Below, piece after piece: positions 6,517 through 32,069 of a stretch of DNA of 64,000 nt. The stretch is from an uncultured Pseudomonadales bacterium (GTDB lineage: Bacteria; Patescibacteriota; Microgenomatia; UBA1400; RBG-16-45-19). The notes beneath the pieces were generated by a model. The model was given only the letters and a program-made list of their open reading frames with translations. It did no database searches and was not told where the DNA came from. Numbering within the stretch: position 1 is the stretch's first letter; each line of letters begins with the position of its first letter. Both the position numbers and the translations under genes were made by a program. The stretch covers positions 24,393-88,392 of the forward strand of contig CAYYKL010000001.1 of the NCBI GenBank assembly GCA_964441155.1, in the 5' to 3' direction.

Positions 6517-9441
6517 CTACGCTTGTGATCGAATGATACGCAACATTTCACCATGCTTAAGCGTTTTGGCTAAGACTTTGGTTTTGATTTCAGTTTCAAA
6601 GAGTTCTGGCCACTCTGGCAATTCCACGTCGACCAATTCATCATGAGCAGTTTGCGCCACTTTCCTGGCATCCATAATCTTGCGAATGATTTCACGCGCC
6701 TTGCCTTCGGCTTCAAGTTCGGGCGACAACTCAAGATCTAGATAGGCGGTAACGACGCCCATTTTTGCCGCATCACTCGCGTGCTTCACCGTTGTCTTAG
6801 CGGCATACTCTTGAGAAATGGGTGTAAACACTTTTACATTTGCCTCAGCTTGGATCAGAGCAACCAACTGTGGTTCTTCATTCAGAATCTTGGCGAAAGG
6901 GCGATCAAGCGACCAACTGCCCAGAGGCTGACGGGCTGGTATGCCAGATTCTTTGCGCAGCGAATGAAGCAGAGAAACAATATGTTGTATTAGGTCCATA
7001 CGATTTTCAAGTTCGGGTTTGTTGGCATCAGCTCGAAATTGAGGCAAAAGTTCTAAATGAATTGATTCTTTGCCATTTATGACTATATTTTGGTACACCA
7101 ACTCTGCAAAAAATGGTGCAAACGGGGCAATGAGTAAACTCCAGCGCAACAGTGTTGCCCTAAACACCTGAAGTACTTCTTGATTGGTTGCATTGTCACG
7201 CAATCGATCTCGACTCAAGCGCAACCACCAAGTCGAAAATTCTTGCACAAACTCCATGAGTGCTCTTGATGCAGTCACCACGTCATAGCTATCCATCGCT
7301 TCAACCACCGTTTTGGTTAAGCCTTCGACTTTGGATATAAGCCATTGGTCCAATACGTGCTCTGCTTTTTGGGGAAGTGCAAAATCTTGCTGGTCGTCAT
7401 CATAGAGTTTATAGAAAGAGAGAACATTCCACATCATCACTAATACTTTTTTCCTGATTTCGTCGACTTGAACTTCGGCAAAATTGACATTTTCAGCCGT
7501 TTTCATGACAGGAGAACTAGCGAAATATAATCTCAGTGCGTCAACGCCATATTTGTCGACAAGCAACATCGGATCGGTAAAATTGCGTTTACTCTTGCTC
7601 ATTTTGGTGCCATCTGCAGCCATAATCGTGCCGGTCGTGAGCGCGTTTTCAAAGGTATGTTTGCCAAACAGTGCCACCGACATCACGTGAAGCGTATAAA
7701 ACCAGGCTCGAGTTTGAGCAATATACTCACTAATAAATTGGGCTGGGTGGCGCTTGTCAAATTTTTCTTGGTTTTCAAACGGATAATGCTCGCTTGCATA
7801 AGGCATGCTTCCCGACTCGACCCAACAATCAAAGACTTCCGCGATTCTTGTGCCTTTTATAGTCTTTGCATCATCAACCCAGACTTCAATGTCATCAATA
7901 AACTCTCGATGAATATCGGTTAATCCTTCAACACGTGTCGGATCTACTGCCCAGTCTTTAAGCTCGTCAATTGAGCCAATAACGCGGTATTTTTTTGATT
8001 TTGGATTTTGATTATCGGTTATGTGTTCTTCCCATATTGGCATTGGCGTACCCCAATAACGCGAGCGCGAGATGTTCCAATCAGGCGCCGTTTCCAATCC
8101 TTTGCCAAATCGACCGGCTTTTAAGTGCGAGGGCACCCAATTAATGGGTTCGTTGTTTGCAACTAATTGATCTTTGATGGATTGAATGTTTATAAACCAG
8201 GCTGGAATACCAGTGTAAAAGAGTGGCGTTTCACAGCGGTAGCAATGTGGGTAGGAGTGGACAAATTTTTCTTGCTTAAACAGCAACTCACGCTTGGTTA
8301 GATCATCAAGTACCCAGGCTTCTGATTTTTTGAAAAAGACGCCTGACAATGGCTCCACGAAAGGTAAAAACTTGCCTTGGTCGTCAAGCATGTCCACCAA
8401 AGGTAAATCAAGTTTCAAAGCTAATTGAAAATCATCTTCACCATACATTGCGGCCGTGTGCACTACACCGGTTCCGTCCTCCATGGACACAAAATCACCA
8501 GCGGCAACATAGTGTGCTTTTTTGTCGCCAATATCAAGATAGGTGTAGAGCGGTTCATATTCCCACCCCGACATATCAGCACCCATCAGTGTTTCAACCA
8601 CTTCATAGGGTTTTTCGATGATGCCAAGTCTCGCTTCGGCTAAATAGAAAAACTCTTCGTCAATTTTGATTTTGACATACGGCTTGTCGGGTGCCACGGC
8701 TAGACCCACATTGCCAATGAGTGTCCAGGGAGTGGTGGTCCAGGCTAATATAAATTCATTCTGATGATTTTTTCGCTTGAACTTAATAGTGATTGAATTG
8801 TCTTCGACGTGCTTGTAGCTGTTGTCCATGGCGATTTCGAAATTAGACAGTGGCGTGGAACAGCGAGGACAATAGAGGATTACTTTTCTGCCTTGATACA
8901 CCAGACCTTTTTCGTGCAGTTGTTTAAACGCCCACCACACCGATTCCATGAAACTCACGTCCATAGTTTTATATGAGTTTTTAAAATCAACCCAGCGACC
9001 GATGCGCTTGATGATTTTTTCCCACTCAGCGTCGAAGCGAAAAATGGCAGATCGACATGCTGCGTTAAATTTGTCGATGCCTAAATCTTCAATGCCTTTT
9101 TTGCCACCTTTAAGATCAAGCTCTTTTTCGACAATGTTTTCAATTGGCAAGCCATGGCAATCCCAACCCCATTTTCGCTCGACCCTGAAGCCTTTCATCG
9201 TCCAATAGCGGGGCACGATGTCTTTCATGATCGAACCTAAAAGATGGCCATAGTGCGGCAAGCCCGTGGCAAAGGGAGGGCCGTCATAGAAAACAAACGG
9301 CTTGTCAGCACTGCGCTCACTCACCGATTTTTCGAAAGCATGAATCTCATCCCAATATTTGAGCACGCGCTCTTCAAGCTCGGGCAAATTTGGTCGCTGT
9401 TTAAAATCTAGGTTTTTTATGTCTGTCATATGTTGGGTCAT
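6517..9441 (-). CDS. ileS: isoleucine--tRNA ligase
   Basis: Class I aaRS: HIGH-type motif (PHYGH) and KMSKS; length ~975 aa. The start is chosen at MTQHMTD (9441). The ORF's extension to 9528 would translate through the leader. Confidence 0.9.
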   Translation of the reverse strand: MTQHMTDIKNLDFKQRPNLPELEERVLKYWDEIHAFEKSVSERSADKPFVFYDGPPFATGLPHYGHLLGSIMKDIVPRYWTMKGFRVERKWGWDCHGLPIENIVEKELDLKGGKKGIEDLGIDKFNAACRSAIFRFDAEWEKIIKRIGRWVDFKNSYKTMDVSFMESVWWAFKQLHEKGLVYQGRKVILYCPRCSTPLSNFEIAMDNSYKHVEDNSITIKFKRKNHQNEFILAWTTTPWTLIGNVGLAVAPDKPYVKIKIDEEFFYLAEARLGIIEKPYEVVETLMGADMSGWEYEPLYTYLDIGDKKAHYVAAGDFVSMEDGTGVVHTAAMYGEDDFQLALKLDLPLVDMLDDQGKFLPFVEPLSGVFFKKSEAWVLDDLTKRELLFKQEKFVHSYPHCYRCETPLFYTGIPAWFINIQSIKDQLVANNEPINWVPSHLKAGRFGKGLETAPDWNISRSRYWGTPMPIWEEHITDNQNPKSKKYRVIGSIDELKDWAVDPTRVEGLTDIHREFIDDIEVWVDDAKTIKGTRIAEVFDCWVESGSMPYASEHYPFENQEKFDKRHPAQFISEYIAQTRAWFYTLHVMSVALFGKHTFENALTTGTIMAADGTKMSKSKRNFTDPMLLVDKYGVDALRLYFASSPVMKTAENVNFAEVQVDEIRKKVLVMMWNVLSFYKLYDDDQQDFALPQKAEHVLDQWLISKVEGLTKTVVEAMDSYDVVTASRALMEFVQEFSTWWLRLSRDRLRDNATNQEVLQVFRATLLRWSLLIAPFAPFFAELVYQNIVINGKESIHLELLPQFRADANKPELENRMDLIQHIVSLLHSLRKESGIPARQPLGSWSLDRPFAKILNEEPQLVALIQAEANVKVFTPISQEYAAKTTVKHASDAAKMGVVTAYLDLELSPELEAEGKAREIIRKIMDARKVAQTAHDELVDVELPEWPELFETEIKTKVLAKTLKHGEMLRIIRSQA

Positions 9442-9720
9442 CCTGAACGTGTTTAGTTTAACGATACAAAAAAAGCGGCACACATCCTCTCTTTCAAAAG
9501 GTCCCGTTGACGGGAGGTACCACCTCAATTAGCGATTAGGATCTAGGGTTTAGTGGCTAGAGTTTTTTGCATTTCCCTAATCACTATTCACTAGTGGCTA
9601 ACCACTGTCTCGTTCCTGCTGTCTCGGGCTTACCCGGAAGGGTCTAATGAGGATGCTTGCATCCTGTTCTTCCTTCTCCCCCACCTACTTTTGTAGTAGA
9701 TCTCCTTGCTGATAACAAGT
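9442..9720 (-). promoter_or_regulatory. T-box riboswitch-like leader upstream of ileS
   Basis: The minus-strand RNA contains AAUUGAGGUGGUACCUCCCG (plus-strand ~9503-9522), matching the T-box consensus AAUUAGGGUGGUACCGCGG. A compact antiterminator can be drawn: GAGG / 7-nt bulge UGGUACC / UCCCG-UCAA-CGGGA / CCUU. The bulge variable base U is complementary to the tRNA-Ile discriminator A73. A U8 tract follows, and upstream hairpins could form Stem I. The specifier and terminator pairing are not resolved. Confidence 0.45.
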
Positions 9721-9980: not shown

Positions 9981-11258
9981 TTATTTCTTCTGCCTCAAGA
10001 AGGCCGGAATATCGAATTCGTCTTCGAAGGTGTCTTCTGCGCGAGCCGGTTTGCTTGAGTTAGTTGATTGTGGTTGTTTGTGTGTCGGCTTTGACGTAGA
10101 GAAATAATTGGGTGTTTCTATCTCTTCAGAATCATCATCAACTACAGGATCGGTCGTTTCGTCATCGTCAGTGACAGGGTCATCGGTTACGCTCGATGAT
10201 TGGCTTGATTGAAATGAGGCTTGAGGCGAATATGATTGTATTGGCTTGGAAGTGACACTCGGCGAGCGATCAATGCCACCAAATATGCCACCATGTTCCA
10301 TTCTGTCTTCAAATCCGGTGGCAATAACACTTATCTTTATTTCATCCTTCATTTCAGGTCTAATGGTGGCGCCAAAGATTATATTGGCATCGGGATCAGC
10401 GGATTGAGAAATGATTTGCGCGGCGTCGTTCACCTCGCTCATGGTCAAGTCTTCGCCGCCAATGATGTTAAACAAGATTCCTTTAGCGCCATCGATGGAA
10501 ACTTCTAGCAATGGAGAAGCCACAGCCGCCTTGGCTGCTGAGACAGCACGGTCACTACCAACACCTGTGCCAATACCCATTAATGCACTGCCTGCATCGG
10601 TCATAATCGCTCGAACATCAGCAAAGTCCACGTTAATGAGCCCTGGAACAGTTATGAGATCAGAAATGCCTTGCACGCCTTGTCCGAGCACGGAGTCGGC
10701 TACGCGAAATGCTTCGAGTAAAGACATTTGTTTGTCGATGACATCAATCAAGCGTTGGTTGGGAATAACAATCAGTGTGTCAACTTTTTCTTTGAGTTGA
10801 TCAATACCTTCTTCGGCTGTATTCATCCGCCGGTGTCCCTCGAATGAGAAAGGCTTGGTAACTACGGCCACTGTGAGCGCTCCCGTTTCTTTGGCAATTT
10901 CGGCAACCACCGCACTCGCACCTGTGCCCGTACCGCCACCCATCCCGGCAGTGATAAAAATCATGTCAGTGTTTTGGACGAGCTCCAAAATATGATCACG
11001 TGATTCTTCTGCCGCTTGGCGACCGATATCAGGATCGGCCCCAGAGCCTAAGCCCTTGGTCAAACTATCTCCGATTTGCAGCTTGGTTGTGGCTTGATTA
11101 TTAAGGAGTGCTTGAGAATCGGTGTTAATGGTTACAAACTCAACACCTTGAATTTTCTGATTGGCAACCATTGAGTTGATGGCATTGCCGCCACCCCCGC
11201 CTACACCAATGACTTTGATGTTGGCAAATGTATTGATGCTCGGTTTGACCAGTGCCAC
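9981..11258 (-). CDS. ftsZ: cell division GTPase FtsZ
   Basis: GGGTGTG tubulin signature, NTD/CTD architecture, an acidic disordered linker and a C-terminal conserved peptide (DIPAFLR). An AGGAG SD lies 6 nt upstream. Confidence 0.95.
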
Positions 11259-11388
11259 TTGAGACTCCTAACGATCGCTTTTTTAGAATTACGTTTAATA
11301 ACCATGTATATCGAGGGCAAGTTTTGCAAGCAGTATACCACGAAGTCCTTATTTGGCCATATGTACCACCTCAAGGAAAAAGAGGAGG

Positions 11389-12696
11389 TTATGGGAGCAG
11401 ATTTTTGATCATGGCCACGAGTTTTTTAACCAGGTTTTTTCCAGAAACTTTAGGCAGATTTCCCATGAGTTGGTTGTCAGTTCGCTTGGGTTCGAAGTTT
11501 CGGTTTTTGAGGCCATAATGAATAAGCCCGACAGCACATGCATATTGTGGCGAGGACAACTCATCAATGAGACCCGATAAGCCTTTGGGTTCGCCAATGC
11601 GCGCTGGGACCGACAAGACTTTTTTAGCTAAGGAGTCGGCCATAACAGTAGACGCTCCGCCACCAGTCAACACCACACCGGCGGGAATTTGATGGAGTAA
11701 ATCTTTTTGTTTAAGCTCTTCGCGGATCAAGTTGAAGAGTTCACTTAAGCGGGGTTGGATAATACCTTGAATGATTTGTTTTTTTGAGGTCGTCGATGCT
11801 TCTTCGTTAATTCCCAAAGCTTGCAAATCAAGGAGGTCAAAATCTTTGCGAAGTTTGGTAATTTCTGATGCTGACGCCTCTTTTGGAGGCATAAAAATAA
11901 GCGCTTCTTTGGACAAATGAAGTTTTACGGCTTCAGCGTCTTTGAGGCTCAAGCGCATGCCGATAGCGATATCGTTGGTAATGTTTTTTGCCCCAACGGG
12001 CACCACAAACGAATGCGAAAGCGCCCCTTCAACAAACACGGTGACGCTGGTTGTGCCGGCACCCATATCTATAAGTGCGACTCCCAATTCTTTTTCTGTT
12101 TCTGACAACGTTGCATAGGCGCTGGCATAGCCCGAGAAAACGGTGCCATCGACTTGTATACCCAATTCGGTGATACATTTGTGCAAGTTTCGAATAGCCG
12201 TCGTTGAGCCAGAAACCAAATGAGCTTCTGCCTCAAGCCGAACTCCCGACATGCCGATTGGGTCTTTAATACCTGGTTGCGAATCGACCATGAAATCTCG
12301 GGGGATAACGTGGATAAGTTCTCGTGACGAGGGCAGAGAGACTGCTCGAGCGGCTTCGATCACTCGATCCACGTCTTCGATAATAATTTCACCTTCTGGT
12401 TCAGCTACTGCCACCACCCCTTTAGAATTTTGGGCGGCAATGTGAGCGCCAGAAATTGAAATAAAAGCGGAGTTTATGTTGTATCCGGCCATGCGCTCTG
12501 CCGATTCAACACTTGCTGTTATGGCCTCAATTGCCTCTTCAATGTCAACTATTTGACTTTTGCGCAAGCCCTTGCTGGGTGTTGATGCCACACCAATAAC
12601 ATTGGTTTTTCCTGATTCACTTGATTGGGTAGCGATGATAGTGCTGATTTTGTCAGAACCGATATCGATTCCAGCAATGACTGGTCCTTTTGGCAT
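11389..12696 (-). CDS. ftsA: cell division protein FtsA (actin-like ATPase)
   Basis: 435 aa. N-terminal IAGIDIGSDKI phosphate-1 motif, actin/HSP70 fold; sits immediately upstream of ftsZ. Confidence 0.9.
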   Translation of the reverse strand: MPKGPVIAGIDIGSDKISTIIATQSSESGKTNVIGVASTPSKGLRKSQIVDIEEAIEAITASVESAERMAGYNINSAFISISGAHIAAQNSKGVVAVAEPEGEIIIEDVDRVIEAARAVSLPSSRELIHVIPRDFMVDSQPGIKDPIGMSGVRLEAEAHLVSGSTTAIRNLHKCITELGIQVDGTVFSGYASAYATLSETEKELGVALIDMGAGTTSVTVFVEGALSHSFVVPVGAKNITNDIAIGMRLSLKDAEAVKLHLSKEALIFMPPKEASASEITKLRKDFDLLDLQALGINEEASTTSKKQIIQGIIQPRLSELFNLIREELKQKDLLHQIPAGVVLTGGGASTVMADSLAKKVLSVPARIGEPKGLSGLIDELSSPQYACAVGLIHYGLKNRNFEPKRTDNQLMGNLPKVSGKNLVKKLVAMIKNLLP

Positions 12697-12798
12697 ATGG
12701 TGAAATTATCCTTACTGTGTATGTTTCATTATACCCCACAAACAACGTGGCAAGAGCAAAAAATCCACTGCCCAGAACAATATCCAAAGCTCATGTAT

Positions 12799-13578
12799 TT
12801 ACTGCAACACTGGACGCTGGGGGCGCAGGTCGATAACTCTTGGGTTTGTTTCCATTGTATCTGTCCCTAAAATTATTTGTAAAGAGGCCACCTGATGTTC
12901 TAATGATTTGAAACTGGTAAACAAGAGTTTGATTGATTGGCTCACCACTTCAATTCTTTGCGCTGACGCTACGGTGACACTTGTCATGGGAATATCGCGC
13001 TCGAGCAGCAGAGCATACAACTGTGTGGCAGCCAACAGCCCGGGATCTTTAATGACACTTCCCACTTCTGGCTGCAAAGGCTCTAAGCTTTGAATTTGAA
13101 ACAGATTTGCATAGGGAGTAGGTGAAAACTCAGTTATGACCATTTTCGTGTTAACAAGCAGAGACGCTGACTCTGATGCAGTCACAATTTGTGCCAATGG
13201 CTGGCTTTGCTCCAGATTAACCACCAATGTCGATGGCAATTGAACTGCTGCCACTACCGTTTCGAATTGGGGTAAGGCATGTGCAAAAGTGGTCTCAATA
13301 GACTTAGGGTCCAAAAACAATGCCTGCTTCCCCATATTTTGGTCGGCAATTGACTGGACTTCAGCTGAGCAGGGCACACTCTCATCAGCAAAGCATTCGA
13401 CCGTATTAATGGTCATGCGTGAAAAGCACAAAAAACTTAAAGCGATCAAAGCAAGAGGAAGTGCGTATAAAGGATTGAGCTTGGATAACATTTGAACAAT
13501 GCCAATTCGAATGCTTGGAATAGTTGAGTTTTTTACTCTAGGCGTTGATCGTTTGGCACGGGTTTGGACAAAGCGCAT
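12799..13578 (-). CDS. FtsQ/DivIB-like bitopic division protein
   Basis: 259 aa with a single N-terminal TM segment and an extracytoplasmic domain. The canonical position between murG and ftsA supports the call. Confidence 0.5.
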   Translation of the reverse strand: MRFVQTRAKRSTPRVKNSTIPSIRIGIVQMLSKLNPLYALPLALIALSFLCFSRMTINTVECFADESVPCSAEVQSIADQNMGKQALFLDPKSIETTFAHALPQFETVVAAVQLPSTLVVNLEQSQPLAQIVTASESASLLVNTKMVITEFSPTPYANLFQIQSLEPLQPEVGSVIKDPGLLAATQLYALLLERDIPMTSVTVASAQRIEVVSQSIKLLFTSFKSLEHQVASLQIILGTDTMETNPRVIDLRPQRPVLQ

Positions 13579-13582
13579 GTTC

Positions 13583-14692
13583 TCATTCTAGCAAGGATTT
13601 GACGAGCGCATAGAAACGAGCCGCACTCTGTGGGTCTTGCAAATTGGTCAGTTTTTTAGCTCGCTTGGTATATGCATCCAGATGTTTGCTTATTGTTTCA
13701 ATTGCAGCCAGGAGTGTTTGAGGTTTGAAATCAACCTGTTTGAGCAAGATACCCGCTTTTTTATCAGTGATAAATCGTGCATTTTTTTCCTGCTCACTAT
13801 TTTGAGAGCCAAAAAGTGGCACCATTACCGCGGGTACACCACAGCTCATAATTTCACTGACGGTGTTGCCTCCGGAGCGGGACAACACTATGGTTGCGTG
13901 CTGCAACAAGAAGCCAAATTCGGTAGCTGTGAGCATGTTTTTGACATACAAGTGTTTGCGTGAGTGAAGCAGCAATTGCTCTCGCATGGTGGTTACTTTG
14001 TCAAAATCAGCAAAAGCTTGCGCGTTCCCCGTTTGCAACACAATCGTGAATTTTTCCAACAATACTTCCAACACCATCATCACCACTTGGTTGATGACAT
14101 GTGATCCCTGACTTCCCCCGGTAATAAGCAGGAGAGGACGGGTAAGCCGAGGCGCAAACCACTCTGGCCGGGGTTGTTCTTGCCAAATTTCTTCACGAAT
14201 CAGGTTCCCAGTAATCACCGTTTTCTTTTTGGGAAAATATTTATATGAGCTTTCATACGACAAGGCGATCTTAGCCGCAAATTTCCCCACCAATTGATTG
14301 GCTAAACCGGCTGCGGCAGTTTGCTCGTGAATAACCACCGGAATTCCCGTAAAGTAGCCCGCCAAACATAACGGTAGTCCCACAAAAGAGCCAAAACTAA
14401 TAATCACGTCTGGTTTCTCTGCCCTAACCAATTTGATTGCTGTAATGGTAGTAAAGAGAATTTTCCAGAGCGAGAGAATCGAGGTAATTTTGTTATATCG
14501 ATCATATTTGACCGAAGAAAGGGGAATAAATCGGCAACCCAATCCTTTAGCTGTCGCTTCTTCGTTAGATGTGGTGGCGTGTACTTTGGCATATTCCCTG
14601 CCAACCACCACCACTTGGTCATCCGCTTCACGAGCGATTTTAATAAATGCGACAGCTGGAGTTATATGTCCACCTGAAACAAGATATTTCAT
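13583..14692 (-). CDS. murG: UDP-GlcNAc:undecaprenyl-PP-MurNAc-pentapeptide GlcNAc transferase
   Basis: 369 aa, GT28 fold. N-terminal GGHITPA motif and a C-terminal donor-binding region; ends in TGA. Confidence 0.9.
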   Translation of the reverse strand: MKYLVSGGHITPAVAFIKIAREADDQVVVVGREYAKVHATTSNEEATAKGLGCRFIPLSSVKYDRYNKITSILSLWKILFTTITAIKLVRAEKPDVIISFGSFVGLPLCLAGYFTGIPVVIHEQTAAAGLANQLVGKFAAKIALSYESSYKYFPKKKTVITGNLIREEIWQEQPRPEWFAPRLTRPLLLITGGSQGSHVINQVVMMVLEVLLEKFTIVLQTGNAQAFADFDKVTTMREQLLLHSRKHLYVKNMLTATEFGFLLQHATIVLSRSGGNTVSEIMSCGVPAVMVPLFGSQNSEQEKNARFITDKKAGILLKQVDFKPQTLLAAIETISKHLDAYTKRAKKLTNLQDPQSAARFYALVKSLLE

Positions 14693-21259: not shown

Positions 21260-22273
21260 CTAACGATGACCGTGATGGCCGGCCGGCTCGTGGTGATCCT
21301 CGTCCTCGTGGTCCTCTTCGCCATGGCCGTGGTCGTCATCGGCGTCCAGTTCGACTTCCCACTGCTGGCCTTGCGCCTTGAAAACGATGTGCTCGACATC
21401 CGACGGAATCTTCAACTCAATGAAGACCGGGACGTCATCTTCCCAGGAGGCCAGCAGGTTGCCCTGGTCGTCTTCGATGACCGCCCCGCCTTGGAAGGCA
21501 TACATCTGCGCGTCGGCCAAATGGGCGACGATCCCGGCGAGATCCGGCAATTCGCTGAGCATGTTGTAGCAGAAGGCCGCGCTGGGCGCATCCTCATGCT
21601 CGGTGTCATGCAACAGCTCCTCCAACATATCCTCGCTGACCTGATCGCCCACACCGACAACGCTGACCACCAGCTTGGGCAGGTCGCCGCGCGCGATGGC
21701 GGCTTCCAGCTGCTCGACATACTCGCCAACTTCGTGGAGGTCATGCCACTGGCCATCCGTGACCACGCAGAGCAGGGCTTTATCGATGCGCTCGCCGTTG
21801 CCGATCCGGAGTTTGAGGTGCGTGATGAACTCGCGCAACGCGGGGAGGAAATAGGTGGCGCCGCCGAAGTCGCCGTTCGGACCGTCGAACCGGTGGGATA
21901 ACGCTTCCTCAGCGGTCATCTCATCGGGATCGACGACAGCGATCTTCGTACCACTTTCCCCCACCGCCCAGTAGGTGACCCAGACGGACTTCGTCGAGTC
22001 CATCTTGACCAGATAAGGCAGGATGACGCCCATCGCCTGATCGACTTGGTTAGCCGCCAGACCCAGGAGTCGGCTGATACCGCCCTTGCCGTACTCGTCC
22101 TGGAAGGACTTGCTCGCGTCGATAGCCATACCCACGGCGAGATTCTCGATGGTGTCGAACGGGAGGACCCCCTCGAGATGGTAGTAGCCGTCGGAGCCGA
22201 GGCCGCAGTGAACGTCAACGAACGGAAGTTGGGCTTGGTGCTTGTGGGCACCATGATTAACGTGACTAGACAT
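21260..22273 (-). CDS. von Willebrand factor type A (vWA) domain protein with a His/Asp/Glu-rich C-terminal tail
   Basis: MIDAS motif DASKS after a hydrophobic beta-strand (LAVGMAIDASKS) and a downstream VVTDG motif. The C-terminus is DADDDHGHGEEDHEDEDHHEPAGHHGHR. The gene is markedly GC-rich (~60%+) with a GC3-rich codon bias, unlike its flanks. Confidence 0.75.
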   Translation of the reverse strand: MSSHVNHGAHKHQAQLPFVDVHCGLGSDGYYHLEGVLPFDTIENLAVGMAIDASKSFQDEYGKGGISRLLGLAANQVDQAMGVILPYLVKMDSTKSVWVTYWAVGESGTKIAVVDPDEMTAEEALSHRFDGPNGDFGGATYFLPALREFITHLKLRIGNGERIDKALLCVVTDGQWHDLHEVGEYVEQLEAAIARGDLPKLVVSVVGVGDQVSEDMLEELLHDTEHEDAPSAAFCYNMLSELPDLAGIVAHLADAQMYAFQGGAVIEDDQGNLLASWEDDVPVFIELKIPSDVEHIVFKAQGQQWEVELDADDDHGHGEEDHEDEDHHEPAGHHGHR

Positions 22274-22693
22274 TTCGATTTACCTCTTTTTTTTGAATTT
22301 CGTATCTGTGTCGTCCCAAGCCATCCAAGTTGACCTTGAAGGTTTTTTTGCCTCAGTTAGCCAGAAGTCTCGCGACTTTCTGTTTCTTTCTCCTAAAAAG
22401 ATTTTCTCTAACTTCAGCTGATGGCTCGCTGGATAAAACTATTTTTACCCACTGAGCCACCGCCGAAGAAAGCAAAATCTTTCAATTGGAGTGCTTTAGA
22501 ATCAATTTGTAAAGGTGCAAAAATGCACTTTTAATCCCTCACACAAAACAAGCAATTTGCTTTAGGAGTGACTAAAAGCGCGAACTTAAAATGTTAGTGT
22601 TCAAATCAATGAACAAAGTATTATATGTTATAGGTTTATATATTTCAACAACTATATTTGTCATCTAATCTAGCGAGAATTCAGAATTTAAAA

Positions 22694-22729
22694 AACTATA
22701 GACTCTCCTTCTCTGAATGAGAAGGATCA
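22694..22729 (-). terminator. candidate intrinsic terminator after the 512-aa gene
   Basis: An 8-bp stem (UCCUUCUC / GAGAAGGA) with a 7-nt loop starts at the stop codon. A U6 run follows after a ~10-nt spacer, which is longer than ideal. Confidence 0.3.
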
Positions 22730-24265
22730 AGTCTCAAAATCATTAGTCCAATCATCAACCTTTGATGTTCGGGGTTGGATTGGTTCAAATTCTGCTGAAT
22801 AATCAGGCTCAGTTTTTTTCTTCTTAGGCTTCACTACCGGATCGGACTGCTTTGTTTTTGGTTTATGGGTTGCGGCCTCAAAATCCGCCGCCCAGTCAGA
22901 TGCGTCAGAAATTGTATTTGTAGGTTTAGAGCTAGTGGCAGCAAAGTCATTTCGCCAATCCTGTGCATCCACTTGAACTGGCGGCCTGACGAGTGGCGCG
23001 AAATCAGCAGAATAATCTGGTCTAACAGGTTCTGTGGGACGCTTTTTTGGTTTGGGTTTTGGTTGTCCACCCGGCCTTGATTCTGGTCTTGTGACAGGTG
23101 AAGGAGCAATAGGTCGAGGAGTTGGTGTTATTGGTTTTGGCAATTGTTGAGCAGGAACTATCACTTTTGGTTTCAACTGGTCAAATGAAACATCACTCAA
23201 TGTGCTAAATAATCGTTTATCATCGGGTGTAGAAATAACCAGCAAGACTTCACGTATCAATTGCACATAATCTTCGGGAGTTGCTTGCGGAGGGATTTGT
23301 ATTTGCTCTTGACTCCATGAAGGAAGAAGTTGACGCAGTTTATCAATGAATGATCCTGAAGCAGGAGTAGTAGATTTTTTAGTGGATCGTGTCGCCGTGT
23401 CATCTTTGATCACATATCCTTCAGCTTCAAGTTCCCTTTCTACGCGTTCGCGATTGGGCAGAGGAAGTATTGCACTAACAAATGGGTGTGTGATTCCCTG
23501 ATCCAACATATCTTTTTGTAAAAATGCGAGTAAATCATGCGTGACGCGCATCATGATGTGATTATTTCCCATTTGTTCGATAGTGCCTGCATCAATGATC
23601 GGATACACCAATCCTATACCCTGACGTTTTTCCACTGCCTGGAGTGGACGGGTGGCGACTATCAATTGGTTAATCTGGGCATGATTTTCTCCAAAGGTAG
23701 AAATAGGAAACTGACTCGATGCATATGCATGGAGTAAATCAAGTCGTCCGACAGTCAATTCACCTTGGTGTAAGACTTTTTTTATTTCCAATTTACCAAG
23801 CACTATTTTTGCCCGAGCACTGACGCGCGCTCGCAAGGTGATCGGATCATTGAAGCCCTGATGATCAGTTTGTTGACTGATATTGGAAATAGAATAAAAA
23901 TCCATTTCTGCAGCTTCGATGTAGCGGAATTTGTCGCGCTTACTAACCCGCGCCTGCTGATAACTTCCTTGAAGAGAGGGATGTAAATCTCCGACTGGCA
24001 CGACATCGATCACATCATCGACGCAGCCTACCACTGCCAACGTATGCACGGTATCCGAATTTGGATCTTTCAAATGAAATACATCCAACAATACTTGCTG
24101 GACTCGAGCTAGTTCGCTTGAAACCGGAGTTTCATTACCTGAAGCTCGGAAAAAATCCGGCCATTGATTTGGTATTGGTGTGCGTGCTTCTCTTGTCATA
24201 TATTTTTTATTACCTTTTTTTGCGCTCAAGACATAAACGCAAAAAGAGGCAAACAAGAACATCAT
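22727..24265 (-). CDS. hypothetical protein: ~330-aa globular N-domain, a Pro/Lys-rich linker, and a C-terminal tail with 5 repeated acidic-aromatic motifs
   Basis: Low-GC ORF between the two high-GC genes. The tail motifs are PDYSADFAP, DWRNDFAAT, DWAADFEAAT, PDYSAEFEP and DDWTNDFET, the last at the extreme C-terminus. The N-domain has a Cys...His pair (VVGCVDD ... NNHIMM) that could indicate a papain/NlpC-like fold; this is speculative. The start is ambiguous: ATGATG at 24265 is embedded in a hairpin, and MTREAR at ~24199 is the alternative. Confidence 0.7.
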   Translation of the reverse strand: MMFLFASFCVYVLSAKKGNKKYMTREARTPIPNQWPDFFRASGNETPVSSELARVQQVLLDVFHLKDPNSDTVHTLAVVGCVDDVIDVVPVGDLHPSLQGSYQQARVSKRDKFRYIEAAEMDFYSISNISQQTDHQGFNDPITLRARVSARAKIVLGKLEIKKVLHQGELTVGRLDLLHAYASSQFPISTFGENHAQINQLIVATRPLQAVEKRQGIGLVYPIIDAGTIEQMGNNHIMMRVTHDLLAFLQKDMLDQGITHPFVSAILPLPNRERVERELEAEGYVIKDDTATRSTKKSTTPASGSFIDKLRQLLPSWSQEQIQIPPQATPEDYVQLIREVLLVISTPDDKRLFSTLSDVSFDQLKPKVIVPAQQLPKPITPTPRPIAPSPVTRPESRPGGQPKPKPKKRPTEPVRPDYSADFAPLVRPPVQVDAQDWRNDFAATSSKPTNTISDASDWAADFEAATHKPKTKQSDPVVKPKKKKTEPDYSAEFEPIQPRTSKVDDWTNDFET

Positions 24266-24321: not shown

Positions 24322-25248
24322 CTAATTCTGGCTCTTCTCACCCTCCTTGAGCTGCTTGACAACCATCGCCGGATCTTGCTGCAGACCGCGCTCGGCCAGG
24401 AGCTCTTCGATTCGGCCGGTCCGCGCCGCGGGGGTCAAGAGAAGCAGTTCGCGCTGAACAGCTGCGCTGCTGGGCACACGTTGGAACGTGTCCCGTGCCG
24501 CATTCGCAGCTGCGACCGCACGATTTGCCTGGGATTCCAGGTCCCGCAACTCGCGCGTTGCTGAGTTATCCGTACCGACCCCGCTAGACGCGTGGTAAAA
24601 GTCTTTTGCAGCCTGGCCAGCAGTCGACTTCCCCGCAGCAACTTGCGCTTTCCGAATGGTTTCGGCCTTGAGAGTCTGGACGAGTTCCTTCAGTCTGCTC
24701 GCTTCATCAATCATCCTGAGTGCGGCCTCATAGTCGGGCTGCATATCCTGCAAGGATGATTCGAAACCTTGAATCTTAGCATCGGCTTGTAAAGCCGCGC
24801 TTTCGTTCATCCCGATTTCTTGATTTTGCCGAGCGTCGTCGATGCCATCGCCCATCAATTGCTTGAGGTTGTTCAACGCCAGTTCACGAATTTCAAGTTG
24901 TTCTTCACGTTGCCGCTGAAGCAGCATGTACGCATCGACCACTTGTGCATTGTGAACCTGCGCTTGCTCTAGCTGCCGCAGACGCTGTTGCGCCTCCGCC
25001 TCAGCTTTGGTTTCGATCGTCTGAGCTCGTAGTTGCGCATTATAGACGCTGTCAGCCGTTTTATCGGCTTTGGCGCCAAACGCGTTCATGAGTTTCCGAA
25101 GGGCATTCCGTCCCATCGGAGTCGCTACCAACACAAGCCCAACAAGCAGAATACCAATCAAACCAATCACAGTCGGATCCATCTTTACTATTCTCCTTAA
25201 GTTGTTTAGAGCATTACCTCGGACGTGGTCTGCTCGCTCGACGCACAA
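24322..25248 (-). CDS. membrane-anchored coiled-coil protein, PspA/IM30 (ESCRT-III-like)-resembling
   Basis: The likely start is MDPTVIGLIGILLVGLVLVA (TM helix, ~25182). It is followed by ~260 aa of heptad-rich, Ala/Gln/Glu/Arg-rich helix (LRKLMNAFGAKADK..., QRLRQLEQAQ...). GC is elevated (~55-60%) relative to flanks. The family assignment is tentative. Confidence 0.55.
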   Translation of the reverse strand: MCVERADHVRGNALNNLRRIVKMDPTVIGLIGILLVGLVLVATPMGRNALRKLMNAFGAKADKTADSVYNAQLRAQTIETKAEAEAQQRLRQLEQAQVHNAQVVDAYMLLQRQREEQLEIRELALNNLKQLMGDGIDDARQNQEIGMNESAALQADAKIQGFESSLQDMQPDYEAALRMIDEASRLKELVQTLKAETIRKAQVAAGKSTAGQAAKDFYHASSGVGTDNSATRELRDLESQANRAVAAANAARDTFQRVPSSAAVQRELLLLTPAARTGRIEELLAERGLQQDPAMVVKQLKEGEKSQN

Positions 25249-25506
25249 AATTTATGCGACCAGCGAGCAAACCACTTTCGTTAATTTTTCTGTAGGTGTT
25301 AATGTGCAAAAAATAACCACAAAAAATCCGCAGCTTAGGCGAATTTGTAATTATCTTCTTCAAATCAATCGTTACGATTAATTAAGACCGGAATTATAGC
25401 CTTGGGACTAAAATATGTCAAAGTTATAGGGTATAAATAACCAAATCGAAATTGCTACGCAGAAGCTATAAACACAATCACTTCTCGTTTTCAGAGCCTG
25501 TGGCGT

Positions 25507-27150
25507 TTATTGCTTGATGAAGTCGCTCACCACAACGTTGAAGTCAAATATATCTACTTGCCCGTCGTCATTGAGATCGCCAGTTTCGAGCTGAGAACTA
25601 AAAAGTAATTCAATAATTGTTCGGATATCGTTGCTATCGACCACTCCCCAAGGCTCGGTAATATCACCTCGAAGAATCGGGGTGGGAAGTGGAGAAGGAT
25701 TATCTGTAGGCAAGGGAGTTGGCAAAGGGGAAACTGAGGGGTAATCCAATTTGGTGTAGGCATTGGTTCTCTGCAGGTTTCCGCCTGCAATTGGCCAGAG
25801 CATGGTTTGATCGTGATAGTCACCAGACAAAAGAGTGAATTGCGCGGATTTATTCGGCAGTGTATAAAACAGCGCAGTCTTTCCCCCGCTCTCCCCTAAT
25901 GAAATGGAGGAAGCGCCACATGCTTCATCGATTGTTTGCGTGATTTCTCCCCAAACGGAATACACAACTGGAGCACAATCGGTGCTGGCAATTATCTCTG
26001 GCTGCAAATGCGCATCAGTATTACCCACTAGTATTGGACTTGCCGGTTTCGTAGATATGTTTGGCAGAGCAACTGGCCAACCTGGACGCACATTCCCTTG
26101 ATGATCAACCACCTTAAGTTCTCCCTTCTTTGGAGAATAAATCAAATCAAGTGTACCGTCATAGTCCAAATCTGCTGGAGTGGCTGTCGTTACTACTGAC
26201 TCGGTGATTGGTTGTTGAGCTAGTGGTTGTAACAAATGATCGAAGACTGTTATTGAAAGCGTGTTCAAACCTTGATTTTCTGTGGTTAAGAGTATCTCTT
26301 TTTTAGTATCACCGTCAAGATCGGCGAGTTTGATGTCTCTCGCTCTTTTTCCTTTCATTTGAGCTGAAGCAGTCGCGACATCTCCCAAATGATCATAAAC
26401 GGTTAAAACTGTGTCCCAGTTAGGCGAAACACCTGGCTCATCCATAACCCCTATGACGACTTCAGTATCACCATCTGCATCGATATCACTCAAAGCTGGA
26501 ATCGAAAATTCTGTAGAATAAACGAAGCCACTTCCCCAAATGCTTTTCAGACTAGTATCATTCCACTCAGAAATGCCAAATGATGAATCGAGATGATTAT
26601 TTACTCGTATTAACTCGTACTCTTCATCTTGATCAACATTGGTAAGACTATAGAAGTTGCTCGTGGTTCCTGCGGCTGTATATGCAAATACATACGGGTT
26701 CACACTGTTCTGTTGAAAAATGAGCGTGCTTTTTGACGTGCCCACCACAATATCGGCACGATCGTCTCCCGTGAAATCACCAATCAAGGGTGGATTCACC
26801 TCAGTCTCTCCAGCAAATGCTCGGCTCCATATTGTTTCCCCAGACTCGCTAATTAATTTGACTATGAGCTCATTGTAGGTAGACTTGCCTGTTAAGAGGT
26901 ACGTTGAAGGTTGCTCTTTGTTATCGATAGGCACTATGTGTTCAGCGGAATAGATGAATTGATGCGGCCATGACTCACCTGCAACTCGCTGTGGTTGATT
27001 GCAGCTTGCGTGAAGCCAATAGAAAACACAACCATCTGGGCCTCCATACAATCCCATATCGGATCGGCTTGCATCAGCATCAATTAAGGTCGGGTCTCCA
27101 GCGTCAATTGCGGGGGATGTGGGTAGCGGAGAATATGGCAGAATGTTCAA
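25507..27150 (-). CDS. C-terminal portion of a large surface protein: FG-GAP/VCBS beta-propeller repeats plus a C-terminal dockerin-like Ca-binding repeat pair
   Basis: FG-GAP motifs (GDFTGDDRADIVVG, SDIDADGDTEVVIG, ADLDGDTKKEILL, ADLDYDGTLDLIY). Dockerin-like repeats (GDITEPWGVVDSNDIRTIIELLF; GDLNDDGQVDIFDFNVVVSDF). The ORF begins with a TTG directly in frame with the upstream ORF and has no signal peptide of its own. Confidence 0.7.
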   Translation of the reverse strand: MNILPYSPLPTSPAIDAGDPTLIDADASRSDMGLYGGPDGCVFYWLHASCNQPQRVAGESWPHQFIYSAEHIVPIDNKEQPSTYLLTGKSTYNELIVKLISESGETIWSRAFAGETEVNPPLIGDFTGDDRADIVVGTSKSTLIFQQNSVNPYVFAYTAAGTTSNFYSLTNVDQDEEYELIRVNNHLDSSFGISEWNDTSLKSIWGSGFVYSTEFSIPALSDIDADGDTEVVIGVMDEPGVSPNWDTVLTVYDHLGDVATASAQMKGKRARDIKLADLDGDTKKEILLTTENQGLNTLSITVFDHLLQPLAQQPITESVVTTATPADLDYDGTLDLIYSPKKGELKVVDHQGNVRPGWPVALPNISTKPASPILVGNTDAHLQPEIIASTDCAPVVYSVWGEITQTIDEACGASSISLGESGGKTALFYTLPNKSAQFTLLSGDYHDQTMLWPIAGGNLQRTNAYTKLDYPSVSPLPTPLPTDNPSPLPTPILRGDITEPWGVVDSNDIRTIIELLFSSQLETGDLNDDGQVDIFDFNVVVSDFIKQ

Positions 27151-29952: not shown

Positions 29953-31737
29953 CTACTTCACCGTCACCGACTTGGCTATGTTGCGCGGTTTGTCGACGTT
30001 GTTTCCCAAATCGACTGCCATGTAATAGGCGAGCAATTGCAGTGGCACAATCGCGGCAAGCGCACTCGCATCACCTAAGTCTGGAATCGGATTATGGACG
30101 TCAAAGGAATCGCTTGCTTCAGGAGCAAACCCAATAATCTCTCCCCCACGCGCCTTGACTTCGTGCACCGCACTCATCATATCCCGCGCATTGGTATCGT
30201 TTGCAATCACAAAGATAACCGGCACTCCTTTTTCGATGATAGTAATCGCATAATGTTTGAGATCTCCCGCGGCAATGGCATGGGCATGCCTATAGCTTCC
30301 CTCAACGATTTTGACCATCCCTTCGTGCACCGTTGCCCTATTTTGGCCTTTGCCGAGTAAGAATATATGCTCTTTGACAACCAGTGTGTGGGCCAATTTT
30401 TTCAATCGATTGTGTTGCGCCTCATCTAAAAGCATGGCTTGAATCGATTGCTCCACCTTTGTCAGTTGGTCAAGCCCTAGGTCTATATTTCCCTCCACTG
30501 CATGAGCAAGCAGAAATCCAAAAGCTTGCATGGCGCTATAGACTTTGGTCGACATGACACAAATTTCCGGTCCTGCTTGGGCCAAAAACGCATGATTAGC
30601 CATGCGTTCCATGCTGCTCCCGGGCATATTGGTAAACGTGGCAATGGTCACACCTATGGCTTTGGCAGCTTCCAAAATTTCCAAAACATCTGCTGTTTCG
30701 CCACTTTGAGAAGGGGCAATGATAATATCTCTGCTAGTGAATAAATCAACATACTCCTTTGCTTCGGCACCAATCAAGCTTTTGGTATTTATTTTGGCGA
30801 TTGAGCGCAAGAAAAATGCTGTTTGAGCTGCAGCAATCCCTGCGGTTCCTGAGCCGATGGTGTAGACAGTACGAGCTTTGAGTATTGCACTTGAAAGTTT
30901 TATTAATTTTTTTTGATCAATCACACTCACTGCCTGAATTGCCCTGGGAGTTTCGAAAATCTCCTTGAGCATATAGTGGTCATAGCCCTTTTTATCGATA
31001 ACTGTTTTGTCAAGTGCTAGCGGGGTGAATTTGAAAGCAACTGGCTTATCGGTGATGATATCCACCAGCTTCAAAACACCTGCATGAATAATCACCATTT
31101 GGTTATTTTCGATAGTGAGTATTTCAGTTGCAAACGGCGCAAGAGACAGGGTGTCCGAGGCAACGAAAAAATCATGATCATTTTTGCCCACCACCAAAGG
31201 TGAGCCGTTGCGCGCCGCCAAAATCTCACCGTATTTGGTGAGAACGATAATCGTATTTCTCCCCTCCAAGCGCTTGAAAATCGTTCGCACAGCCTGCGCT
31301 CTTCCTTCCAAAGAATCACCTAGTCTTAGTAATTTCTGCTCCAATAATCCCACAATTACCTCGGTGTCCGTTTGTGAAACGAATCTTCTGCCTTTTTTAG
31401 CGAGTTCCTGTTGAAGTGCCTCATAATTTTCCAGAATTCCGTTATGAGCCAGACAAAACGAGCCATCTTGGACTTCGTGTGGATGCGCATTAACTTGAGT
31501 TACTCCCCCATGTGTTGCCCAACGAGTATGCCCAATGCCCACTCTTACTTTTGGCAACTCTTTGGGCAAGCTGTCAGGAATTGAACCTACAAGCTTTAGT
31601 GTCATTATTTGGTCAGCATTGAGAACTGAAATTCCCCAAGAATCATAGCCACGATATTCCAAACGCTTCAAGCCATCACGAATAATTTGCGCCGCATTAA
31701 CTTTGTTTCGAGACGAAATACCAAAAATTCCGCACAT
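29953..31737 (-). CDS. glmS: glutamine--fructose-6-phosphate aminotransferase (isomerizing)
   Basis: Begins MCGIFG (Ntn-hydrolase catalytic Cys2), two SIS domains, C-terminal ...AKSVTVK; 594 aa. GAGGTG lies 7 nt upstream of the ATG. Confidence 0.95.
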   Translation of the reverse strand: MCGIFGISSRNKVNAAQIIRDGLKRLEYRGYDSWGISVLNADQIMTLKLVGSIPDSLPKELPKVRVGIGHTRWATHGGVTQVNAHPHEVQDGSFCLAHNGILENYEALQQELAKKGRRFVSQTDTEVIVGLLEQKLLRLGDSLEGRAQAVRTIFKRLEGRNTIIVLTKYGEILAARNGSPLVVGKNDHDFFVASDTLSLAPFATEILTIENNQMVIIHAGVLKLVDIITDKPVAFKFTPLALDKTVIDKKGYDHYMLKEIFETPRAIQAVSVIDQKKLIKLSSAILKARTVYTIGSGTAGIAAAQTAFFLRSIAKINTKSLIGAEAKEYVDLFTSRDIIIAPSQSGETADVLEILEAAKAIGVTIATFTNMPGSSMERMANHAFLAQAGPEICVMSTKVYSAMQAFGFLLAHAVEGNIDLGLDQLTKVEQSIQAMLLDEAQHNRLKKLAHTLVVKEHIFLLGKGQNRATVHEGMVKIVEGSYRHAHAIAAGDLKHYAITIIEKGVPVIFVIANDTNARDMMSAVHEVKARGGEIIGFAPEASDSFDVHNPIPDLGDASALAAIVPLQLLAYYMAVDLGNNVDKPRNIAKSVTVK

Positions 31738-32030
31738 AGATGCACCTCATTTTTTTCTAATTAAAGAATATGTTGTGAAAATTAAACTTTATGCAAGCTG
31801 GAGAATTGCTTGCTTCAAGATCCAAGCTGACTTTGTTTTCTGTAATTACTCACAGGATTTGATCAGGTTGGTTAGTGGATGCTTGACTCACCCAGAAGGT
31901 TTCCGCTGATACTTACTGAAGGCAGCCGTCTAGGCGCCGAAAGTAGTCCGATTTCTTGAAGCTGACTTCAAGACCTTCTTCCTCGTATCCCTAAATCGTC
32001 AAATGACGATGCAGGACCACACGCTCTTTT
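31738..32030 (-). ncRNA. structured 5' leader upstream of glmS; weak candidate glmS-ribozyme-like element
   Basis: A 332-nt gap between murA and glmS. The minus-strand RNA carries, in order: AGAGCG..., a P1-like hairpin (UCGUCAUUUGACGA), GAUACGAGGAAGAAGGU, a 7-bp hairpin (CUUGAAG-UCAG-CUUCAAG), AAUCGG...UUUCGGCGCC, and ACGGCUG...CAGCGG. These resemble glmS-ribozyme core blocks (GACGAGGA, AUCGAAUUUUCGGCGG, CGGCUG), but the P2 topology and the 5' GCGCC are not matched. Low confidence. Confidence 0.2.
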
Positions 32031-32069
32031 TTTGGTTATCCCTCCATAAACCTCCTTTCAAAATACACC

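Follow-up and report, generated by a model that had tools for sequence, protein, structure and literature searches.

Integrin-type ligands are acidic linear motifs (RGD, LDV and the glutamate of GFOGER) that are bound by von Willebrand factor A (vWA) domains or I-domains, and the carboxysomal protein CsoS2 carries repeated short motifs that bind Rubisco. Here we describe a gene in a 64,000-nucleotide stretch of DNA (the window; contig CAYYKL010000001.1, positions 24,393 to 88,392) from an uncultured bacterium placed in the Patescibacteriota, whose product ends in a tail with five copies of a short acidic-aromatic motif, D[WY]xx[DE]F, together with the gene downstream of it, whose product is modelled as a vWA fold with a complete metal-ion-dependent adhesion site (MIDAS). 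The motif-tail gene and the vWA gene are strictly linked in genomes, and the motifs are candidate docking sites for the vWA protein.

With the MIDAS ligands of integrins, this system shares a short motif in which an acidic residue is obligatory, placed on a flexible segment, and a vWA domain with a complete DxSxS-T-D site. It differs in being cytoplasmic and bacterial, in carrying two to five copies of W-x-x-D-F, the last of which sits at the free C-terminus, and in encoding the ligand and the candidate receptor in one operon, where binding at the MIDAS is what we infer. The Ku-binding motifs (KBMs) of APLF, XLF and MRI, which dock on the vWA domain of Ku80, are likewise short motifs in disordered tails, some of them at the extreme C-terminus; however, Ku80 uses a non-MIDAS surface, KBMs are generally known to be basic-hydrophobic, and there is no sequence relationship. 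CsoS2-like scaffolds resemble the present protein in presenting repeated short motifs on a disordered, positively charged chain that is multivalent for a folded partner encoded nearby, but motif, partner and biology differ, and we claim neither a compartment nor a condensate.

The SSB tip (DDDIPF) and the FtsZ C-terminal peptide (D-I-P-x-F-L) are also acidic-aromatic docking handles that end a disordered linker. They occur in a single copy per chain and have another consensus, spacing and host domains, whereas the motif described here is also internal. An earlier interpretation of this DNA made without database searches (the sequence-only reading) had likened the repeats to the SSB tail, which stands as an analogy of principle and fails for consensus, copy number and host fold. 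Assignment to SSB-type tips was rejected, as D[WY]xx[DE]F is present in five copies and the N-terminal domain (N-domain) of the protein has no SSB or OB-fold match in Pfam or by fold. Mimicry of the FtsZ peptide (D-I-P-x-F-L-[RK]) was likewise rejected, as the motif has an aromatic residue at position i, Phe at i+4 and no Pro, and the location of the gene within the division and cell-wall (dcw) cluster is unconserved. In MoxR-vWA systems, as in this locus, a bacterial cytoplasmic vWA protein with an intact MIDAS is encoded beside the proposed source of its peptide (Kaur et al. 2020, PMC7159879), but the vWA protein described here carries a β-domain and a His/Asp-rich tail instead of effector domains. 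Membership of that class was rejected too, since clustering of the open reading frames (ORFs) in 80 loci returned, as families shared across phyla, only the scaffold, the vWA paralogs and a P-type ATPase; a Pfam scan of the Obscuribacter neighbours found no MoxR-type AAA+ domain.

The motif-tail gene of the window has the following features, in which pLDDT is the predicted local distance difference test score of AlphaFold2.

22727..24265, minus strand: motif-tail protein gene; the longest ORF has 512 amino acids, and the likely real start, M23 at 24199, gives about 490
23171..24199, minus strand: conserved N-terminal globular domain (residues ~23-365), pLDDT >90 over most of residues 30-360
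22730..23170, minus strand: Pro/Lys-rich C-terminal tail (residues 366-512) with five motifs, predicted disordered from composition and low pLDDT
23000..23017, minus strand: motif 1, DYSADF (in RPDYSADFAPL), by pattern match
22943..22960, minus strand: motif 2, DWRNDF (in AQDWRNDFAAT), by pattern match
22868..22918, minus strand: motif 3, ASDWAADFEAA, with its flank TISDASDWAADFEAAT (residues 450-466); core at 22880-22897; by pattern match and AlphaFold2
22787..22804, minus strand: motif 4, DYSAEF (in EPDYSAEFEPI), by pattern match
22736..22753, minus strand: motif 5, DWTNDF (in VDDWTNDFET), followed by ET and the stop codon, hence the C-terminal copy; by pattern match

Residues 366-512 and the stop codon together occupy 22727-23170. 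D[WY]xx[DE]F is matched there five times, beginning at residues 417, 436, 457, 488 and 505, which bears out the five motifs, the last of them at the C-terminus, that had been read from the sequence. The motifs contain all Trp and Tyr residues of the tail and all but one of its six Phe residues. The tail is 18.4% Pro and 11% Lys; its linkers carry a net charge of +16, and the motif residues are acidic. When the tail was shuffled 100,000 times, no round gave more than two motif matches, compared with the five observed, and a six-frame scan of the rest of the window found a single further match, unrelated, at 5227-5244. No DNA-level repeat underlies the motifs, as Tandem Repeats Finder returned just an unrelated TTTTGG run; the five copies vary at synonymous and flanking positions (mean column identity 66%), indicating that the motifs are maintained at the protein level. 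The length of 512 residues given by the sequence-only reading is overstated: in an alignment with 30 relatives, all of them start at the position of M23, so that the true protein probably has about 490 residues. The 22 extra hydrophobic residues ahead of this conserved start (24200-24265, minus strand; MMFLFASFCVYVLSAKKGNKKY) are absent from the relatives and, if translated, would resemble a membrane anchor.

Conservation of the motif was assessed with a profile of the N-domain only, so that the tail could not bias the result. A search of 1.84 billion representative proteins with this profile returned 194 representatives at E<=1e-3 and 155 at E<=1e-10, from Acidobacteriota, Melainabacteria, Myxococcota and the window's own lineage, among others; a word-index search gave two relatives only. 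We combined the representatives with the family proteins of the loci fetched for genomic comparison, giving 164 proteins with a tail of at least 30 residues. W..DF is present in 156 of these tails, from at least three named phyla besides the window's lineage, and the array is thus far from unique to one sequence. Of these, 105 tails have three copies, 35 have two, 10 have four or five and 6 have one. In 140 of the 156, no more than four residues separate the last copy from the C-terminus, and the commonest ending is KPDWMKDFE. In the distant clade, the three copies can be told apart by their extended consensus: P[DE]WMQDF[ILV]xAH..PG for the first, PDWMxDF[ADE] for the middle and KPDWMKDF[ED] at the C-terminus for the last. 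One of the two relatives from the word-index search, with 30% identity, already shows such an array, with TAWADDFAT, KWWADFPT and ADWSQDFTL in a Pro-rich tail that ends in AAKWRDDFA. Across relatives, the linkers between motifs (median net charge +11) are unalignable, whereas the motif is near-invariant, and it persists at ~22-30% N-domain identity in several phyla with its C-terminal position fixed.

The bias of the tail towards Pro and Lys makes it conceivable that the motifs arose without specific function from low-complexity composition or from a recent expansion of repeats. We give this explanation next to no credence: both a compositional artefact and an origin from DNA repeats are effectively refuted by the shuffles, none of which reached three copies, by the outcome of the N-domain-only search and by motif density. 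Per 1000 residues, W..DF occurs 22 times in tails, 0.019 times in N-domains and 0.014 times in unrelated ORFs (648,000 residues), an enrichment over background of more than 1000-fold, and neither the conservation across phyla with a fixed C-terminal position nor the lack of a repeat in the DNA fits such an origin.

Some family members have exchanged the tail for something else. Six proteins of 660-1210 amino acids (P0077, P0091 (Planctomycetota) and P0112, P0126, P0140 and P0151) carry large extra regions in its place, among them a LamG domain at the C-terminus and a common C-terminal segment that ends in ...VALHG[LM] and is unmatched in Pfam. Other architectures thus reuse the N-domain.

The linkage between the motif tail and a vWA gene was examined in a scan of reference genomes, which gave 80 loci from Blastocatellia and other Acidobacteriota, Obscuribacterales/Melainabacteria and Myxococcota, the last including Myxococcus, Corallococcus, Cystobacter, Hyalangium and Archangium. 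Since the C-terminal motif (PDWMKDFE clade) was among the patterns searched with, the distant-clade loci do not test motif conservation independently; the N-domain-only search does. Two vWA-like paralogs (~323 and ~342 amino acids) lie directly downstream on the same strand in all 75 distant-clade loci that extend past the gene, and the remaining five of the 80 stop at a contig edge and are uninformative. The close clade has a single adjacent vWA-like gene in each of its five contexts (the window, L001, L093, L094 and L095, with divergent orientation in L095). Counting both clades, 80 of 80 informative motif-tail loci have an adjacent vWA-like gene. At L093, the plus-strand frame 1557-2687 encodes a clear vWA-like protein (E = 2.5e-110), while the public gene call is an antisense ORF at 1665-2627 on the minus strand, probably a mis-annotation in that metagenome-assembled genome.

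Proteins that lack the tail show the converse. P0025 and P0036 have, in place of a tail, a C-terminal domain homologous to the 337-amino-acid vWA-like protein of the window (E = 3e-18 over residues 44-309 for P0025 and E = 3e-3 for P0036), and no separate vWA gene was found in either locus. Neither the tail-less LamG form P0077 (L090, a 12.7-kb contig) nor the tail-less short form P0004 (L096/L097, 17 kb of context) has a vWA-like gene. A separate adjacent vWA gene thus accompanies 80/80 motif-tail loci versus 0/4 tail-less ones (Fisher p = 5e-7, uncorrected for shared ancestry). At L098, the tail of P0012 is cut to one terminal motif, and the gene adjoins two fragments of a vWA gene at 9151-9521, which match profile positions 21-48 and 193-250. 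Its surroundings contain a PemK toxin gene and a MerR/MerB/ChrB/ArsR/P1B-ATPase metal-resistance island, and the locus looks like a decaying module in which the partner gene has decayed.

In the window, the partner gene and the sequence next to it have the following features.

21260..22273, minus strand: partner gene, encoding a 337-amino-acid cytoplasmic vWA-fold protein with a C-terminal β-domain, from Foldseek, homology and adjacency
22106..22120, minus strand: MIDAS motif D52-A-S54-K-S56 of the partner, with T140 and D173 completing the site, from alignments A6 and A7
21263..21343, minus strand: C-terminal tail of the partner, DADDDHGHGEEDHEDEDHHEPAGHHGHR, acidic and His-rich, with net charge -11 and eight His residues, from the sequence
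22620..22648, minus strand: promoter-like site TTGAAA-17-TATAAT with 11 of 12 matches, by consensus match only

The AlphaFold2 model of the partner (mean pLDDT 80) gave 59 matches in the Protein Data Bank (PDB) at E<=1e-3 with Foldseek. All listed matches are to vWA/MIDAS proteins or to complexes with such a protein, namely ITIH1, the copine BON1, RGLG, complement C2a, integrin I-domains, TRAP, Ku80 (6tyu), Rpn10, NorD and MDN1. Positions D52, S54, S56, T140 and D173 of the MIDAS show no or almost no variation in alignments A6 and A7. The vWA domain is followed by the β-domain and then by the acidic His-rich tail; across the family, the tails of the vWA proteins have a median net charge of -8. 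Compared with Pfam, in which VWA is PF00092, the window protein had no match at E<=0.1, and paralog A of Obscuribacter scored 20.2 bits against the PF00092 gathering cut-off of 23.8. As these proteins fall below the Pfam cut-off yet are vWA by fold, they form a divergent vWA subfamily that is recognised by fold.

We consider it an even bet that the vWA partner docks on the motifs in a multivalent manner, the invariant Asp probably being placed at the MIDAS metal. In this mechanism, a cytoplasmic scaffold-type protein, made of a conserved N-domain of ~340 amino acids and a flexible, Pro-rich, basic tail of 110-150 amino acids, would present two to five copies of [DE]-W-x-x-D-F (D[WY]xx[DE]F in the window), one of them at the free C-terminus. 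The motifs would dock the co-encoded vWA protein, of which there is one copy in the window and there are two paralogs in most other lineages. The carboxylate of the invariant Asp would complete the coordination of the MIDAS metal, while Trp and Phe would fill neighbouring pockets; with several motifs per tail, one scaffold could hold several vWA molecules, and the basic linkers and the acidic, His-rich vWA tails could add electrostatic attraction. The binding mode with Asp at the metal is proposed because MIDAS sites generally capture extended peptides, peptide capture at this site being described as the general vWA mode (Kaur et al. 2020, PMC7159879). The MIDAS of the adjacent vWA protein had been named as the receptor in the sequence-only reading. 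The modelled fold, the complete site, the adjacency in every informative locus and the fusions all agree with that part of the claim; the physical binding, the use of the MIDAS and the dependence on metal are what we infer.

Several points weigh against this proposal. Motif copies number 3-5 and vWA genes 1-2, which is a mismatch. Gene adjacency and fusion demonstrate that the two are functionally linked without telling which surface binds which, and some vWA domains, for example that of Ku80, bind linear motifs away from the MIDAS. The promoter-like site falls in the 453 bp that separate the vWA-like gene from the motif-tail gene, and with such a spacer and a promoter-like site of its own, co-transcription with the motif-tail gene is not assured in the window. 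Finally, motif 3 and its flank are ordered in the single-chain model and include a β-strand, which requires a pairing partner; this hints at docking of one or more copies on the N-domain of the protein itself.

That model was produced by AlphaFold2 with a 31-sequence family alignment. The N-domain was modelled confidently, whereas the tail is predicted to be disordered, with pLDDT of ~47-68 outside residues 450-466. The sole ordered tail segment consists of a strand (450-453) and a helix (455-466) that runs through motif 3, with pLDDT of ~79-86. The low scores, together with the unalignable linkers around a near-invariant motif, agree with the earlier view of the tail as a multivalent linear-motif array and not a folded domain.

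The ordered segment leads to a different explanation, in which the motifs dock on the protein's own N-domain, either in cis as autoinhibition or in trans as a head-to-tail oligomer or condensate, and the vWA protein binds the N-domain or acts downstream. Besides the contrast in pLDDT with the rest of the tail, this would account for the flank of motif 3 being kept in several relatives as x[IL]T[ST]..DDWxxDFLAE, and the distinct extended consensus of the first copy in the distant clade suggests more than one receptor site. Yet the model orders a single copy out of the five, N-domains without a tail exist (in the fusions, the LamG form and the short forms) and so do not need the motif, and docking on the N-domain leaves unexplained why loss of the tail accompanies loss or fusion of the vWA gene. 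We therefore regard it as unlikely.

By all comparisons made, the motif-tail protein belongs to no named family, and its N-domain matches no known fold in the PDB or BFVD search. Foldseek found no match for the N-domain in the PDB at E<=1e-3 (TM-scores <0.2) and none in BFVD; sequence and profile searches of the PDB found no relative of the protein. Searches of Pfam, NCBIfam and PADLOC gave no match either, also for the ten long multidomain relatives, and the source annotation of family members reads 'hypothetical protein' only. Literature searches for the motif strings found no paper, so the earlier statement that the repeat was unnamed holds in each of these resources. For the combination of vWA and P1B-4 ATPase discussed below, literature searching found nothing, and a broader search returned general papers only. 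Family, motif and operon appear to be undescribed so far.

A P-type ATPase gene, the fourth gene of the operon, lies downstream on the same strand in 54 of the 56 distant-clade loci with enough downstream sequence. Its product has HMA, E1-E2_ATPase and Hydrolase (HAD) domains in Pfam. SPC was found upstream of DKTGT in 53/53 ATPases scored (53 of the 55 found) and HEGxT in 40/53; SPC in transmembrane helix 6 (TM6) and HEGxT in TM8, with a DKTGT site, mark the P1B-4 subgroup of P1B ATPases. The N-terminal extension of ~300-470 amino acids contains (HEHEH..GSCGHDHGH)n repeats with up to 23% His, as in L047 at 11472-14690. We also considered reading this extension as a third vWA domain and rejected that, since nothing but His-rich segments common to both had drawn it into one cluster with the vWA proteins. 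Neither the window nor the close-clade loci L001 and L093-L095 contain the ATPase; L098 has a P1B ATPase ~2 kb downstream. Other metal-related genes near the module are MerR in L001 and L098, a YHS-domain gene in L095 and the resistance island of L098. The His-rich ATPase, together with the MerR and YHS neighbours, suggests that the module is linked to metal homeostasis.

These neighbours bear on whether the motifs instead recruit a partner encoded elsewhere than next door: the His-rich P1B-4-type ATPase, a general hub, or a division or cell-wall protein of the dcw cluster. Acidic-aromatic C-terminal tips are classic hub-docking signals, as is generally known for SSB and the FtsZ peptide, the window gene sits inside the dcw cluster with FtsA and FtsZ, and the ATPase accompanies nearly all distant-clade loci. 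However, the dcw location is conserved in no other locus and the ATPase is missing from the window and four close-clade loci, while only the vWA-like genes co-occur universally; the W-x-x-D-F spacing is, moreover, unlike the FtsZ tail of this genome and, from general knowledge, unlike the SSB tip and clamp-binding motifs. Such a partner is in our view improbable.

Taking docking on the vWA protein together with the metal context, a bolder version can be formulated, which we put forward as doubtful. W-x-x-D-F would be a new metal-dependent MIDAS ligand, a counterpart of RGD and LDV in the bacterial cytoplasm, and the scaffold and vWA proteins would form a metal-binding assembly that senses or buffers Co, Zn, Ni or Fe and, in most lineages, feeds or gates a dedicated His-rich P1B-4 exporter, with metal occupancy of the MIDAS switching assembly on and off. 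The multivalent basic tail would gather several vWA proteins, whose Asp/His-rich tails would form a high-capacity binder of transition metals.

The analysis defines an unnamed family of ~200 representative clusters, which also occurs in the cultivable model bacteria Myxococcus and Corallococcus, and a short linear motif that is sharply conserved and keeps one copy fixed at the C-terminus. Family and motif are tied to a divergent cytoplasmic vWA/MIDAS pair and, mostly, to a His-rich P1B-4-type ATPase. Bacterial linear motifs that are conserved and have an identifiable candidate receptor are rare; this peptide-domain pair is directly testable, with KPDWMKDFE and MIDAS mutants as reagents, and gives access to an uncharacterised operon whose role is probably in transition-metal handling.

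Immediately upstream of the motif-tail gene, a 308-amino-acid ORF (24322-25248, minus strand) stops 57 bp before the start of the longest ORF. Its product starts with a hydrophobic helix, continues with a long stretch rich in Ala, Gln and Glu whose sequence looks helical, and matches no family. The sequence-only reading had pointed to a PspA-like neighbour, which did not hold up: the ORF has no PspA/IM30 match in Pfam or NCBIfam at E<=0.1 or among PDB sequences, and its homologs occur in the contigs of this organism alone, with none in 81 other loci. A perfect sigma-70 consensus, TTGACA-17-TATAAT, lies upstream of it at 25393-25421 (minus strand). Just upstream of the module, 25507-27150 (minus strand) encodes a lineage-specific 547-amino-acid protein with FG-GAP repeats and a weak dockerin-like C-terminus. 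The other window neighbours, among them ORFs of 120 and 166 amino acids and this FG-GAP protein, were likewise found in none of the 81 loci of other organisms.

The dcw cluster of the window spans 9981-41629 on the minus strand, with all genes on one strand: a penicillin-binding protein (PBP), a Mur ligase, MurB, MurA, GlmS, MraY, a MurL epimerase, MurD, FtsW, MurG, FtsA and FtsZ. About 9 kb of lineage-specific genes, among them the motif-tail/vWA pair, break into the cluster, in which FtsA and FtsZ lie at 9981-12696; of the loci compared, only this organism has the motif-tail gene in the dcw cluster. No tRNA or rRNA was found within the window. MurL (PF26299, PF26298) implies a route by epimerisation of L-Glu to D-Glu. 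A glmS ribozyme (RF00234; 53 bits against a gathering cut-off of 37) at 31813-32036 on the minus strand lies directly upstream of the glmS ORF at 29953-31737.

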